The notes: generated by a model not told the origin, from the letters alone. A DNA stretch of 24,000 nt from Microcoleus sp. B6-A1 (GCA_036705085.1 JAUBTU010000002.1); one strand, 5' to 3'; shown: positions 1,216 through 14,955, counted from the first letter of the stretch. Numbers and translations are program-made.

Positions 1216-2799
1216 ATGTACTTAAAATATGAAGATATCAGGAGAGTCAGCGTAGAAATTACCTCCAGGTGCAATGCAGCTTGTCCCCAGTGTCCCCGCA
1301 CCGACAACCCGATTTTGCCGGGGGCAGAATTAAAGATGGAGGATATTGAGAGAATTTTCCCACAAGAGTTTTGCTCTCAGTTGGATTTGGTGTATATGTG
1401 CGGCAACTACGGCGATGCTATGACTAGCAATACCACAATTCCGGCGATCGAATATTGGCATCGCATGGGAGTTCCTCAAATCGGGCTTTATACTAATGGT
1501 AGCGGACGCAATCCCGACTGGTGGCAAGCCCTGGCAAAGGCGATGACAGGAGACAACGACAACGTAACTTTTAGTATCGACGGCTTGGCAGATACTAACA
1601 GCATTTACCGCAAAAATACCAACTGGGATAGAATAATGCAGTCGGTTAATGCCTTCATCCAAGCTGGCGGAAAAGCTGTCTGGCACTACTTGATATTTGA
1701 ACACAACCAGCACCAAGTAGAAGCAGCGCGGGATTTAGCCCAACAACTAGGATTTGTCGAGTTTGTACCGAAAGCTACCTCTCGTTTTGTGGCGAAAGAG
1801 ATATATGAGAAAGAGTCCGCAAATCAACAGCCTCAGAAGGCAGAAAACTCTCAGGTAGATGCCAAGAGCGATCGCCCCAACCAACCAGCAACAACTAATG
1901 CCTCAGCCCCTCAAAATCAAACACAGACGGCTGTTGGGTTGCACCAACAAGCTGAGGACTGTTTGAAACAAGGACAGCTCTCAGAGGCGATCGCAGCCAG
2001 CCAACAAGCCCTAAAAATTCAACCTAATTTTGCAGCAGCCTGGAAAACTTTAGGCAATGCTGTTCAAGGTTTGGGGAAGATGCAAGCAGCAGCAGATTGT
2101 TACGCAAAGGCACTAAAAATCCAACCTAATTTTCCCGAAGTTTATGCTAATGTCGGCAGTCTTTATGCTCAACAGCAACAGTGGCAGCCCGCTAGTGCTT
2201 ATTACCAAAAGGCGATCGAGCTTAAACCCAATTTTGCCGGAGCTTATCGCAATTTAGCTAAAGTGTTGACGCAGTTGGGGCAACCAGAAAAAGCCAATTA
2301 TGCTTGGTATCAAGCTATAGCTATCGAAACCTCTCAAGCACCCGCTCAAACTCAGCCCGTCCCATCAAAGCCAGCCAGCGAAGAACTTCAACCCCCATCG
2401 TTGGAACAATATAAAAATCCACAGGGAGACCAATTTATCCAAGCTGTAGAAAAATTTGGTAGCCTAAACAATTACTACCGAAATGTAGAAATTAGCTGCC
2501 AAACTCAAGCTAGCAAAGACATTTTTATCAGTTTTGAAGCGGAACTCTGGCCTTGTTGTTGGGTAAGTCATACTAAATACGCTGTTTATAATGATACTTA
2601 CAGACCGCAGATGCTGGCTTTAATTGAAAAATACGGAGAGGGCTTTAATTCTCTCAGAACTCAATCGGTGAAAGATGCCCTGGAAAGTGATTGGTTTCGC
2701 GAAGACCTCACAAAAAGTTTTTCCTGTTCTAAAAGGTTGGACGTATGCGCTCACGAATGCGGTAAAACTTTCAATTCCACAGGTTCGCAGTATATATAA
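1216..2799 (+). CDS. Radical SAM enzyme with an internal Q/P-rich linker plus ~4 TPR repeats and a C-terminal Cys-rich (SPASM/twitch-like) region
   Basis: N-terminal CxxxCxxC motif ('SRCNAACPQCPRT') and a 'GNYGDAM' glycine-rich motif mark the radical SAM core. The middle of the protein has ~4 TPR repeats ('ALKIQPNFAAAWKTLGNA', 'ALKIQPNFPEVYANVGSLY', 'AIELKPNFAGAYRNLAKV'). The C-terminus reads 'LWPCCW...CSKRLDVCAHECGK'. GGAG lies ~8 nt upstream of the ATG. Confidence 0.8.
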   Translation: MYLKYEDIRRVSVEITSRCNAACPQCPRTDNPILPGAELKMEDIERIFPQEFCSQLDLVYMCGNYGDAMTSNTTIPAIEYWHRMGVPQIGLYTNGSGRNPDWWQALAKAMTGDNDNVTFSIDGLADTNSIYRKNTNWDRIMQSVNAFIQAGGKAVWHYLIFEHNQHQVEAARDLAQQLGFVEFVPKATSRFVAKEIYEKESANQQPQKAENSQVDAKSDRPNQPATTNASAPQNQTQTAVGLHQQAEDCLKQGQLSEAIAASQQALKIQPNFAAAWKTLGNAVQGLGKMQAAADCYAKALKIQPNFPEVYANVGSLYAQQQQWQPASAYYQKAIELKPNFAGAYRNLAKVLTQLGQPEKANYAWYQAIAIETSQAPAQTQPVPSKPASEELQPPSLEQYKNPQGDQFIQAVEKFGSLNNYYRNVEISCQTQASKDIFISFEAELWPCCWVSHTKYAVYNDTYRPQMLALIEKYGEGFNSLRTQSVKDALESDWFREDLTKSFSCSKRLDVCAHECGKTFNSTGSQYI

Positions 2800-7701: not shown

Positions 7702-8154
7702 TCAAACACTAACAGTTTCCCGCAACTTCTCAACTGCAACATCCAGCGGAGGCAAAGCAAAATCCTCAGCATCCATCAATTCCTTAACCTTCTCAAAAAT
7801 CTCAACCTCCGCCTCTTCTTGGTCTGTCAGCTTATCATAAAAATAAGGGTCAGTAAACCACTGTTCAAACGCTATCATTAACAAGCCATTGGGTGAAAGG
7901 TCAAACCGCCAATACTTAGAAATTCTGCTGTCAACCACTTCAAACATCGGCGCCGGATTATGGATGGGATAATAGCTATAATTATCATTGCAGATGTAGT
8001 ACCAAATAGTCCCTTTCCATTCTCGGATAGCATAAACAACATATTCCTTGCCTATAGTTAGCGGTAACTCAACCTTTCTAGTGTAACCGCGTGGCGGATC
8101 TATATATTCTTCAGGAAGAGATTCACCAGTCTTAGCAATACAACGAATTTTCAT
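7702..8154 (-). CDS. Hypothetical 150-aa protein, downstream member of duplicated cassette (copy 1); candidate immunity-like partner
   Basis: Intact ORF, paralogous to 8559..9011. It starts 11 nt after the stop of the 102-aa ORF. The C-terminal tail is acidic. No family is recognised with certainty. Confidence 0.6.
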   Translation of the reverse strand: MKIRCIAKTGESLPEEYIDPPRGYTRKVELPLTIGKEYVVYAIREWKGTIWYYICNDNYSYYPIHNPAPMFEVVDSRISKYWRFDLSPNGLLMIAFEQWFTDPYFYDKLTDQEEAEVEIFEKVKELMDAEDFALPPLDVAVEKLRETVSV

Positions 8155-8165
8155 AACTTGATTAC

Positions 8166-8474
8166 CTACAGATTTTTAGGGGCTGTTTTGGGATACTGTC
8201 GCTTGAACTTAAACTCCACATCTTGAAGAGTCTGACTGTTCCGAAACCAATGGACTTGTACGGAAGCTCCATTAATTTCAAAAGCCTCAATACTTGTCAT
8301 TTTATCCCAATCTTCAGCATTCCCGCCATAAACAGCAATAAGTCTCCGTGCATCGCCCAACAGTCTATCTGTACCGCAATGAATGACTATGCAATTACCA
8401 GCCTTAGCATCTTCCAGGAGCAATTGCTCCGGCAAATTTCTCGGACTCTCATCGGGAATAGCACCTTGATTCAT
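8166..8474 (-). CDS. Hypothetical 102-aa protein, upstream member of duplicated cassette (copy 1); candidate orphan toxin-like C-terminal module
   Basis: Intact ORF with an ATG start, paralogous to 9023..9331. The pattern 'NLPEQLLL.DAKA...LGD..R....YGG...DW.KM.......G..V.VHWFRN..T...VEFKFK' resembles C-terminal modules I recall from polymorphic toxins. This rests on memory, not a search. Confidence 0.55.
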   Translation of the reverse strand: MNQGAIPDESPRNLPEQLLLEDAKAGNCIVIHCGTDRLLGDARRLIAVYGGNAEDWDKMTSIEAFEINGASVQVHWFRNSQTLQDVEFKFKRQYPKTAPKNL

Positions 8475-8558
8475 AGTTTAACAGTTGCAGATGTTATTTG
8501 TCAAAAAGCTGTTTGAATCAACGGCAAAAGACTAAATTTACCTTCCCACTTTCTCAAC

Positions 8559-9011
8559 TCAAACACTGACACTTTCCCGCAACTTCTCAACTGCAACATC
8601 CAGCGGAGGCAAAGCAAAATCCTCAGCATCCATCAATTCCTTAACCTTCTCAAAAACCTCAACCTCTGCCTCTTCCTGATCCGTCAGCTTATCATAAAAA
8701 TAAGGGTCAGTAAACCACTGCTCAAAAGCAATCTCTAACCGCCCATTCGGTGCTAGTTCAAACCGCCAATACTTAGAAACTCTACTATCAACCACCTCAA
8801 ACAGCGGTGCAGGATTCTGCATGGGATAATAGGTGTAGTTATCGTCACAGATATAGTACCAAACATTACCCTGCGATTGGTAAAGAGCGTAGACAACATA
8901 TTCTTTGCCAAGCGTTAGCGGAAATTCCACTTCTTTCGTAAAATAGAACTCAGGCTTGAGGTAACTTTCAGGGAGAGCATTACCTGTATTGGCAATACAG
9001 CGAATTTTCAT
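8559..9011 (-). CDS. Hypothetical 150-aa protein, cassette copy 2; candidate immunity-like partner
   Basis: Paralog of 7702..8154. The last ~57 residues are nearly identical to copy 1, while the N-terminal ~90 residues are much more divergent. Confidence 0.6.
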   Translation of the reverse strand: MKIRCIANTGNALPESYLKPEFYFTKEVEFPLTLGKEYVVYALYQSQGNVWYYICDDNYTYYPMQNPAPLFEVVDSRVSKYWRFELAPNGRLEIAFEQWFTDPYFYDKLTDQEEAEVEVFEKVKELMDAEDFALPPLDVAVEKLRESVSV

Positions 9012-9022
9012 GTTTTTTATAA

Positions 9023-9331
9023 CTACAGATTTTTTAGTGTAGTTTTAGGATATGTACGTTTGAATTTAAACTCAACAGTTTGGGCAGTCTCGTTATTTCT
9101 GAACCAATGTACTTCAACAACTGCTCCCTCAATTACTGCGGTTTGGGAACTAACCATTTTAACCCAATCACCGACTTTGCCCCCGTAATTAGCGACCAAT
9201 CGGGGAGCATCTCCCAACGGCTTATCTGCACTGCCTAGAATTCGTTTGCCGACGCTAGCTTTAGCATCTTGCAACAGAAGTTGCTCCGGCAAATTTCTCG
9301 GACTCTCATCGGGAATAGCACCTTGATTCAC
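9023..9331 (-). CDS. Hypothetical 102-aa protein, cassette copy 2 (GTG start); candidate orphan toxin-like module
   Basis: Paralog of 8166..8474 with gapless alignment. The first 20 residues are identical, the centre is divergent, and the 'VHWFRN...VEFKFKR.YPKT' end is conserved. Confidence 0.55.
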   Translation of the reverse strand: MNQGAIPDESPRNLPEQLLLQDAKASVGKRILGSADKPLGDAPRLVANYGGKVGDWVKMVSSQTAVIEGAVVEVHWFRNNETAQTVEFKFKRTYPKTTLKNL

Positions 9332-9357: not shown

Positions 9358-10775
9358 TCAAATACCATAAAAACTAATTTTAGCAGGTTCAGTTTCCGCC
9401 AGCAACTTTCCCCGCGAAATCACATAGCGAACCGCAGCGCGCATCCTAATTGCATCATAACAATCCTCAGCGTCCAACACAATCAAATTAGCAGGTTTCC
9501 CCGCCTCTATCCCATAATTATCATCTCCCAGATTGAGAGTTTTAGCACCGTTGACAGTGACCATATCAAAACAAGCTGCAATCTCAGCCATTCCCGTCAT
9601 CTGACAAACATGAACCGCCATATGAGCGACATCCAACATATTTCCCGTACCTAAACTATACCAAGGATCTTGCACACAGTCGTGGCCAAAACTCACATTC
9701 AATCCCTGCTGCCACAACTCCTTAACTCGCGTCACCCCACGGCGTTTGGGATAAGTATCAGCGCGGCCTTGCAGGGTGATATTAATTAAAGGATTGGCGA
9801 TGAAATTAATTCGCGATTTGGCCAAACTTCCCATCAGCTTAAAAGCATAAGCATTGTTGTAAGAACCGAAAGCCGTCGTGTGGCTTGCAGTCACCCGCGA
9901 ACCAGCCCCGCTTCTAATCGCACAAGCCGCTACAACCTCCAAAAATCTCGACTGTTCATCATCGATTTCATCGCAGTGAACATCTATTAATCTATGGTAT
10001 TTTTCAGCAAGTTCAAAAATTCGCTCAACCGACTTCACCCCATCTTCCCGCGTCAACTCATAATGCGGAATCCCGCCCACAGCATCCGCACCCATATCCA
10101 GAGATTTCTCTAAGAGTTTGTCATTTTCTGGACTTCCGTAAATCCCGTCTTGAGGAAAAGCCACAACTTGCAGAGTCATCCAATCTTTGACTTGTTCACG
10201 AACTTCCAAAAGTCCTTGCAAAGCAGTCAGCGTCGGTTCGCTAACATCAGCGTGACTCCTGACAAACAAAATCCCTTGAGACGCTTGCAGCTTTAAAGTT
10301 TCTACAGCCCGTTTTTTGACATCATCCAGAGTTAAACATTGCTTGCGTTCCCCCCAGATTTGAATACCCTCGAACAAAGTGCCGCTTTCATTCCATCGCG
10401 GTTCCCCCGCAGTCAATCGATTTTAGATTTTAGATTTTAGATTTTAGATTTTAGACTGAAGCATTGACCCCACGGATAAATTCGGGGGGCAAGTTTCATC
10501 GGATACAGGTTTTTATTTCTCCACCGATGAATCCGGGGGCTTGTATCCTGGATGCTTTCAGTCAAAGCCGAATCGAGATGAATGTGCGAATCCACAAAAG
10601 GAGGACTAACTAAATTGCCTTGAATGTCGATTTCGCGTTCGCCAAGTTCTGATACCCGATGCGAAACGGCGACTATTTGGTCATCCTCGATAGCAATATC
10701 AACCGTTGGGCGATCATCGCCCGCACCTAACAAACGACATTCGCGCAGAACAATGCTATACTTTTGCTCAGGCAT
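9358..10775 (-). pseudogene. codA: Cytosine deaminase interrupted by a 149-bp insertion (fragments 10437..10775 and 9358..10416 lie in different frames)
   Basis: The fragments align collinearly with E. coli CodA as I recall it. The N-fragment has 'PPFVDSHIHLDSALT'. The C-fragment has 'AGEPRWNESGTLFEGI...DVHCDEIDDEQSRF...VTASHTTA...GHDCVQDPWY'. The N-fragment runs into the inserted sequence and stops inside a heptamer array. Confidence 0.85.
10410..10565 (-). mobile_element. MITE-like insertion (142 bp) in codA, flanked by a 7-bp direct repeat TTGACTG; includes a (TAAAATC)x5 array
   Basis: On the plus strand, cagtcaa occurs at 10410-10416 and 10559-10565. Between them lie ttttaga x5 (10421-10455) and ~100 bp with internal imperfect repeats (gcccccggattcatcggtgg / gccccccgaatttatccgtgg on the gene strand). 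Removing 10417-10565 restores ...GCT TTG ACT GCG GGG GAA... in frame. Confidence 0.75.
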
Positions 10776-14911: not shown

Positions 14912-14946
14912 GTAAATCTAAAATCTAAAATCTAAAATCTAAAATC
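14912..14946. repeat. Heptanucleotide tandem array (TAAAATC) x4 plus one variant copy
   Basis: Reads gtaaatc taaaatc taaaatc taaaatc taaaatc in the zwf-opcA intergenic region. On the plus strand it is the reverse complement of the array read at 10421-10455. Confidence 0.95.
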
Positions 14947-14955
14947 GACTGACTC

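Follow-up and report, generated by a model that had tools for sequence, protein, structure and literature searches.

The window analysed here is a stretch of 24,000 nucleotides from Microcoleus sp. B6-A1 (G000:C183:156098-180097, G000 being the Microcoleus genome that holds it). Its minus strand carries codA, the gene for cytosine deaminase, which is split after codon 72. The first-pass annotation had described two codA fragments in different frames with TTGACTG (gene strand) bracketing 142 bp, and both the ORFs and the repeats are located accordingly: on the plus strand, one copy of CAGTCAA occupies 10410-10416 and a second, separated from it by 142 bp, occupies 10559-10565. The gene does not encode one continuous polypeptide: the HxH motif lies in 10566-10775 and the remainder in another frame 149 bp downstream, and TAA stops occur in all frames between the halves. 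The features of the locus are collected in Table 1. Directly downstream of codA, positions 7702-9331 (minus strand) hold a tandem-duplicated small gene pair (150 aa and 102 aa, twice).

Table 1. Features of the interrupted codA locus, in coordinates of the window.
Feature	Position	Strand	Basis
codA N-terminal part: codons 1-70 adjoining the upstream repeat copy, with the metal-binding HxH motif (..SHIHLD..)	10566..10775	-	ORF list, NF006685, 1K6W alignment
N-terminal ORF, whole: first 72 cytosine deaminase residues plus 40 unrelated codons	10437..10775	-	ORF list
Extension of the N-terminal ORF into the insert by 40 junk codons, TAA at 10437-10439 inside the heptamer array	10437..10565	-	
C-terminal ORF	9358..10416	-	Frame different from the N-terminal ORF (ORF list)
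codA C-terminal part: residues about 73-423, then stop	9358..10409	-	NF006685, 536.5 bits; about 64% identity to E. coli CodA residues 69-415
7-bp repeat CAGTCAA, copy lying downstream in the gene sense; holds the TTG opening the C-terminal ORF	10410..10416		
Upstream copy (gene sense) of the 7-bp repeat; element consensus TCGGTCA, now TCAGTCA	10559..10565		
Inserted element with both bounding GTCA, 153 bp (insertion period 149 bp)	10412..10564	+ (antisense to codA)	Family alignments, empty sites in relatives
Heptamer array (ATTTTAG)x5; on the codA strand (CTAAAAT)n, with TAA in all three frames	10420..10454	+	
TGAC, complement of GTCA, just before hairpin 1	10465-10468	+	
Hairpin module 1, imperfect palindrome CCCCACGGA-TAAA-TTCGGGGGG	10468..10489	+	ssDNA fold; family variants retain hairpin potential
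Hairpin module 2, CCACCGA-TGAA-TCCGGGGG, direct repeat of module 1 with a private G-to-C variant	10521..10539	+	

The C-terminal fragment alone covers positions 69-413 of the NCBIfam cytosine deaminase profile NF006685 and, at 536.5 bits, scores above the curated cut-off of 483 bits; it lacks the HxH metal ligands. The N-terminal fragment matches profile positions 18-69. In the alignment with E. coli CodA (1K6W), the C-terminal fragment corresponds to residues 69-415 and the N-terminal fragment to residues 22-67, and the break falls in the loop that follows the strand with the HxH metal ligands, beta-strand 1 of the barrel. Since the profile and 1K6W alignments meet, the two fragments abut exactly. 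Removal of 149 bp yields ...GATTCGGCT-TTGACTG-CGGGGGAA..., in which the protein sequence ..HLDSALT runs directly into AGEPRWN... The earlier proposal that this deletion restores a codA collinear with that of E. coli holds, the empty allele having been seen in relatives. A single TTGACTG between the codA flanks (exact sequence ..GCTTTGACTGCG..) constitutes the empty site in 9 congeners, and the site is likewise empty in 28 of 31 sampled alleles and in 10 of 10 metagenome contigs matching the junction pattern, so that it is known from no fewer than 28 Microcoleus species and from 10 metagenome contigs. Because empty sites occur in congeners, sampled alleles and metagenome contigs, the restored codA is an allele observed in nature.

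The insert belongs to a repeat family that is abundant in the genus. A search of G000 for further copies, suggested by the first-pass annotation, returned at least 47 BLAST matches and, with nhmmer, 376 matches, about 155 of them near full length and 79 reaching both ends. The family is present in all 79 genus genomes searched, and an exact 25-mer of the element was found in Microcoleus records only in a scan of GTDB genomes. Counts of the core 21-mer (at most 1 mismatch) vary among five species (79, 55, 89, 36 and 9); therefore, copy number has changed since those species diverged. Family alignments bear out the description of the insert as foreign, non-coding and composed of a heptamer array plus a roughly 100-bp repeat-rich unit. 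The opposite case envisaged at that stage, a unit unique in the genome and present in frame in codA orthologs, does not apply: the family is multi-copy and the orthologs are empty.

Family copies measure 137-179 bp and, on the plus strand, consist of GTCA, ATCG, an ATTTTAG array of 3-7 units found in all copies, ATTGAAGCATTGAC, hairpin 1, GGATACAGG followed by a T-run, hairpin 2, CTTGTATCCTGGATGCTTTCG and GTCA; GGATACAGG is the conserved part between the hairpins. The palindromes CCACGGATAAATTCGGGGG and CCACGGATGAATCCGGGGG stand in direct orientation near both element ends. Terminal inverted repeats are absent, the ends GTCAATCGATT.. and ..GCTTTCGGTCA not being inverted copies of each other, and the element is too short for a transposase. 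As a single strand, the codA insert folds better than shuffled controls (z = -4.2 for the plus strand and -3.3 for the other). Several base pairs of the family consensus would be C-A on the minus strand but are G-T on the plus strand, which suggests that the plus strand is the structured one. A short version with one hairpin exists, tandem copies share one GTCA, and hairpin 2 is degenerate in the commonest subfamily (GGAC..CACGTGG).

Incomplete and composite copies also occur. Within the window, positions 14914-14954 (minus strand) hold a solo left module consisting of AGTCAATCG and five ATTTTAG units, 97.6% identical over 41 nt and devoid of the hairpin part. Such left-only pieces number about 170 in the G000 genome; many run into other heptamer arrays, with GTCA as punctuation between arrays. 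Conversely, family copies at G000:C133:64762-65082 and at C196:16517-16740 and 55882-56155 contain other small repeats nested between the hairpin modules, in insertions of about 110 to 210 bp.

A scan of the insert against Rfam 15 gave no family match, the best E-value being 0.11, far below gathering scores. A role as terminator or promoter was considered and rejected: no promoter- or terminator-like consensus site was found in the insert, and family copies show no orientation bias relative to neighbouring ORFs. Among the 79 full copies of G000, the one in codA is the sole clear mid-gene insertion, and this rarity of genic insertions fits selection against them except in losable genes. No description of the family was found in the literature searched, a coverage outside which Elhai et al. 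2008 falls, and the family seems to be undescribed.

The boundaries of the element were defined by alignment of genomic copies, 53 at first and then 78 clean ones. GTCA marks the start in 71 of the 78 and the end in 70, and the flanks beyond are unconserved. Common to both family ends is GTCA only (10412-10415 and 10561-10564 in the codA copy); hence the 7-bp repeat in codA represents the 4-nt GTCA rule, two chance matches and one later mutation. On the gene strand, the element ends with the T that precedes TGAC, a base that codA happens to have as well; the G two bases beyond TGAC likewise agrees with codA by chance, and the remaining 7-mer position was made to match by a C-to-T change in the lineage of G000 and G067, another insert-bearing species. 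In the allele of a third species, G004, the upstream copy is still the consensus TTGACCG. The 7-bp duplication noted earlier is thus present as a repeat, but the duplicated or targeted sequence is the 4-bp GTCA according to the family alignments. Three more loci are occupied by the element in another Microcoleus but lack it in G000, which has a single GTCA at each. The orientation of the family is fixed and coupled to the asymmetric 5'-GTCA-3' site. The presence of GTCA at both element ends and of one GTCA at empty sites is compatible with a target site combined with a 3' GTCA that belongs to the element itself, and also with duplication of 4 bp.

Judged by its architecture, the element appears to resemble most closely the palindrome-associated transposable elements (PATEs), of which it is a candidate member. 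PATEs derive from IS200/IS605-type insertion sequences and carry no genes (Dyall-Smith et al. 2011, PMC3119063), and their definition includes repeat-mediated core deletions (PMC3119063). Both the Microcoleus element and PATEs are small and non-coding, lack terminal inverted repeats and exist in many heterogeneous copies; in both, two palindromes of similar sequence lie close to the ends as direct repeats on one strand, the 5' boundary is marked by a fixed 4-nt site, the end-to-palindrome distance is longer on the 5' than on the 3' side, and core-deleted versions with one palindrome occur (PMC3119063). The Microcoleus element differs from PATEs in the heptamer array between its 5' end and hairpin 1, in the weakness of hairpin 2 in its main subfamily, and in having the same tetranucleotide at both boundaries, so that the absence of target duplication cannot be read off.

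There are also likenesses to IS608 (PMC3201880). The pair of hairpins is bracketed by cleavage tetranucleotides, one on the 5' side of the left hairpin and one on the 3' side of the right, the second GTCA being about 22 nt 3' of hairpin 2; TGAC directly 5' of hairpin 1 is complementary to GTCA, like the guide sequence G_L; and insertion is orientation-specific and takes place beside a tetranucleotide. In contrast to IS608, the left distance is about 52 nt here versus 19 nt and the right distance about 22 nt versus 10 nt, and the right-hand guide is only 3/4 complementary (GGAC) or worse, a geometry that is read from sequence alone.

A further difference from PATEs concerns the parent element. 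In G000, the genome searched, no transposase-bearing relative with these ends was found, a feature that defines PATEs, nor was an IS605-type parent with the ends or hairpins of the codA insert. The six Y1_Tnp loci of G000 show no similarity to the family, and 84 of the 86 occurrences of the hairpin motif in this genome lie inside family copies. A search in G000 for left and right family ends 0.5-8 kb apart found none, and a search for facing left ends as the mark of an autonomous parent likewise failed there. The family may be an orphan PATE family. The resident IS605-like insertion sequence (TnpA and TnpB) has hairpins unrelated to those of the codA insert. This 1.9-kb element exists in three copies, at G000:C60:128-2045, C8:10643-12560 and C183:~40185-42101, the last outside the window. 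All have divergent TnpA (Y1) and TnpB-size ORFs and begin with TTGAC, which is followed by the hairpin AGCGGGC-TAAA-GCC(A)CGCT; CTCAA just 5' of this hairpin is a possible guide for a TTGAC target.

Other classes of small repeats were compared as well. Bacterial miniature inverted-repeat elements (MITEs), such as Nezha of Anabaena/Nostoc and Correia elements, are miniature, non-coding, high-copy and structured. The Microcoleus family shares these properties, together with presence/absence polymorphism between relatives and gene disruption. In classical MITEs, the terminal inverted repeats can be traced to a known insertion sequence, whose transposase determines the target duplication, whereas here terminal inverted repeats are lacking and no parent insertion sequence was identified. 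STRR heptamer repeats were reportedly described in cyanobacteria by Mazel and colleagues in 1990, and small dispersed repeats of Nostoc are said to have been treated by Elhai and colleagues in 2008, a paper cited in PMC5861425. Like these, the present family combines tandem 7-nt arrays, with some GTCA-containing units, and small mobile hairpin repeats in filamentous cyanobacteria; unlike them, its ATTTTAG array is an integral conserved module of a bounded element of 140-170 bp with defined ends. REP/REPIN repeats mobilised by RAYT are 20-40-bp palindromes tagged GTAG or CGTC, arranged as inverted pairs and flanking a RAYT gene. Identity with them was rejected, as the present elements are tagged with GTCA and have their modules in direct rather than inverted orientation, and no family sequence was found at two RAYT-like loci (L047 and L048). 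L047 (G000:C193:20587-23913) contains, in ORF 1465..2031, a 188-aa Y1-type transposase that resembles REP-associated tyrosine transposases; its match to PF01797 is weak (48 bits), and no family copies lie beside the ORF. The idea that the family is the gene-less form of a cassette with a 23S-rRNA-IVS protein (PF05635) was likewise rejected, only one such gene being present in the genome.

GTCA on both sides of the copies and one GTCA at empty sites could also arise if the element were a cut-and-paste MITE whose 4-bp target-site duplication results from a staggered cut by a DDE-type transposase. This alternative is unlikely but has a real minority chance. The codA gene of G073 (L082, G073:C3:36319-40373) contains a 4-bp tandem duplication that turns GTCA into GTCAGTCA and shifts the frame, about 95 bp downstream of the insertion site (window ~10310-10313), where the other 30 alleles have a single GTCA. 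This sequence resembles a classical excision footprint; involving the same tetranucleotide, it may be the footprint of a departed family copy, and it favours target duplication and speaks against the PATE reading. The G073 allele is the one nearest to that of the insert-bearing G067 (80% bootstrap). However, GTCAGTCA is not enriched genome-wide (209 observed versus 238 expected) and no footprint is present at 7 other empty sites. The element moreover has no terminal inverted repeats, and its orientation is strictly coupled to an asymmetric target, a coupling that is unusual for transposases acting on inverted-repeat ends.

The first-pass annotation had suggested that the insertion might be recent. 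Comparison with codA of related strains, where the site is otherwise empty, revealed that G004 and G067 have an insert at the identical position and with identical orientation. A private 25-mer, created by the G-to-C change in hairpin 2, occurs once each in G000, G004 and G067, in codA, and is absent from G010 and G002. Because site, orientation and private 25-mer are shared by these three species only, the insertion happened once, and the presence of the same insertion with its private variant in three species tells against a recent date. The three inserts are 149 (G000), 143 and 152 bp long, each length being 2 mod 3. Two blocks in which they differ correspond to common family variants, and a few point or indel changes also separate them. 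The two blocks suggest that gene conversion from other family copies may have taken place. Outside them, the inserts show 1-4 point or indel differences, fewer than are found between the coding flanks.

No shared haplotype tract that would date a recent spread surrounds the insert, differences beginning 10-28 bp from it. The three insert alleles do not cluster in the tree of 31 alleles, an unresolved bush in which most nodes are unsupported, and the trees of four flanking segments conflict. The four-gamete test is failed by 1618 of 4278 informative site pairs (38%), which puts the minimum number of recombination events (Rm) at 35 or more in 1.2 kb. The codA gene is heavily recombined in Microcoleus. 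Gene flow by homologous recombination has been documented for this genus (PMC10923798).

Both halves of codA are intact in the three species, where no further stop or frameshift has accumulated, and the stop-free halves had initially been taken as a sign of tolerance. Pairwise dN/dS among the three insert alleles is 0.13-0.20, as low as between intact alleles, and terminal-branch changes in a 10-taxon set number 21 synonymous to 11 nonsynonymous (p = 2e-7 against neutrality). With 31 alleles, low dN/dS was rejected as evidence for function on account of the non-clustering of the insert alleles, the Rm value and private changes like those of intact alleles. The insert alleles have 7, 6 and 7 private changes among the 31 alleles, and these comprise 11 synonymous to 9 nonsynonymous, indistinguishable from the 86 to 79 of intact alleles. 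Because the private divergence of the insert alleles is so small, their lack of extra stops is unremarkable. In G000 alone, 2 of the private changes are synonymous and 5 nonsynonymous, one of them an E-to-D exchange adjacent to the HxH motif. Low dN/dS and intact halves are attributed to recombination. The tolerance reading accordingly lapses in a gene that is strongly recombined and whose interrupted copies carry few private substitutions and are no more constrained than intact ones.

These intact halves and their low dN/dS would also be expected if the insert-bearing codA still yielded active enzyme, either as a two-piece CodA or by excision, which is improbable, with a small chance of being correct. 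In the two-piece route, ribosomes would terminate at a TAA of the array and reinitiate at the TTG 20 nt further on, with the N-terminal piece, comprising the beta-sandwich strands and the HxH strand, reassembling with the barrel. Consistent with this, every reading frame meets a stop within the array, where the upstream ORF of all three species terminates 20 nt ahead of the TTG start of the C-terminal ORF. Each insert has a length of 2 mod 3, and the protein is interrupted in a loop that follows beta-strand 1 of the barrel. The junk tail of the N-terminal ORF differs among the three species owing to internal indels. However, neither a Shine-Dalgarno nor a promoter-like signal precedes the TTG, and the C-terminal fragment is without the HxH ligands.

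In the excision route, precise excision in some chromosome copies would act as a reversible switch; the filaments are polyploid and contain many chromosome copies. The lower divergence of the inserts from one another than of the coding flanks is in line with this, and excision of the IS200/IS605 type is seamless (PMC3201880), so that the reversibility suggested by the first-pass annotation is mechanistically plausible if the element is of that type. Against it, no cognate transposase was found, and the 10 metagenome contigs and 28 of the 31 alleles are simply empty. Both routes are further weakened by the account of the selection signal in terms of shared polymorphism and recombination among the 31 alleles, by the private changes of G000 and by the loss or breakage of codA in many congeners. 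It is accordingly very doubtful that the insertion makes codA conditional, through a two-piece enzyme that exploits the array stops and the outward-facing TTG or through seamless partial excision. If true, a conditional codA would explain why the interrupted allele is uncorrupted in three species and why its length is kept at 2 mod 3.

Ribosomal bypassing of the 149-nt insert, from the Thr codon ACT (ACC in G004) to the downstream ACT as in phage T4 gene 60, would produce full-length CodA from the interrupted mRNA, and is extremely improbable: matched take-off and landing codons (ACT/ACT) within the 7-nt repeat, a take-off site at the foot of a roughly 100-nt hairpin and the intact halves in three species recall such a system, but the codon after take-off is GAA rather than a stop, the repeat is explained by the GTCA rule of the family, the independent selection signal is gone, and the gap is 149 nt. 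In bypassing of the T4 gene 60 type, the take-off and landing codons match, take-off is immediately followed by a stop codon, and the gap spans about 50 nt; to our knowledge, 149 nt is three times longer than any known bypass.

The state of codA across the genus provides the setting for the interrupted allele. The gene was found in 45 of 79 genus genomes and is absent from 34. Several of the genomes that retain it show independent lesions, the 4-bp duplication of G073 among them. In G069 (L060), it carries a nonsense change, CGA to TGA, at codon 77, near the insertion site; in G019 (L039), one G is missing from the G-run right after TTGACTGC, a 1-nt frameshift deletion beside the insertion site. 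The 3' end of codA is replaced in G001, and the gene is split over contigs in G021 and G091. Clearly, codA is dispensable in Microcoleus and has been lost repeatedly.

As a whole, the locus is best explained, and probably correctly so, by the knock-out of a dispensable codA by a GTCA-bounded, PATE-like repeat in a single old insertion. Under this explanation, codA would have been knocked out, or at best crippled, by a 149-bp insertion amounting to one repeat copy and one GTCA, which would have come to lie in the loop immediately following the metal-binding HxH strand. Movement would most likely have followed a single-strand 'peel and paste' course driven in trans by a Y1/HUH transposase, with insertion 3' of GTCA, as we infer from the boundaries and hairpins. 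The insertion would have arisen once, and the old allele, now in three species, would have been shuffled onto different codA backgrounds by homologous recombination. Its halves would be stop-free through little private divergence rather than through a demonstrated function of the split gene. This is ordinary gene disruption in a decaying accessory gene.

For annotation, the locus should read 'cytosine deaminase, interrupted by mobile repeat', an ordinary pseudogene call. It also carries a caution: where a genus recombines strongly, low dN/dS between interrupted alleles is no proof of a working gene. Of greater use is the definition of a Microcoleus-wide family of GTCA-bounded heptamer-plus-hairpin repeats, which are present in tens to hundreds of copies per genome and differ about ten-fold in number between species. 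These repeats fragment assemblies and serve as markers of recent genome change in a soil-crust cyanobacterium of ecological importance.
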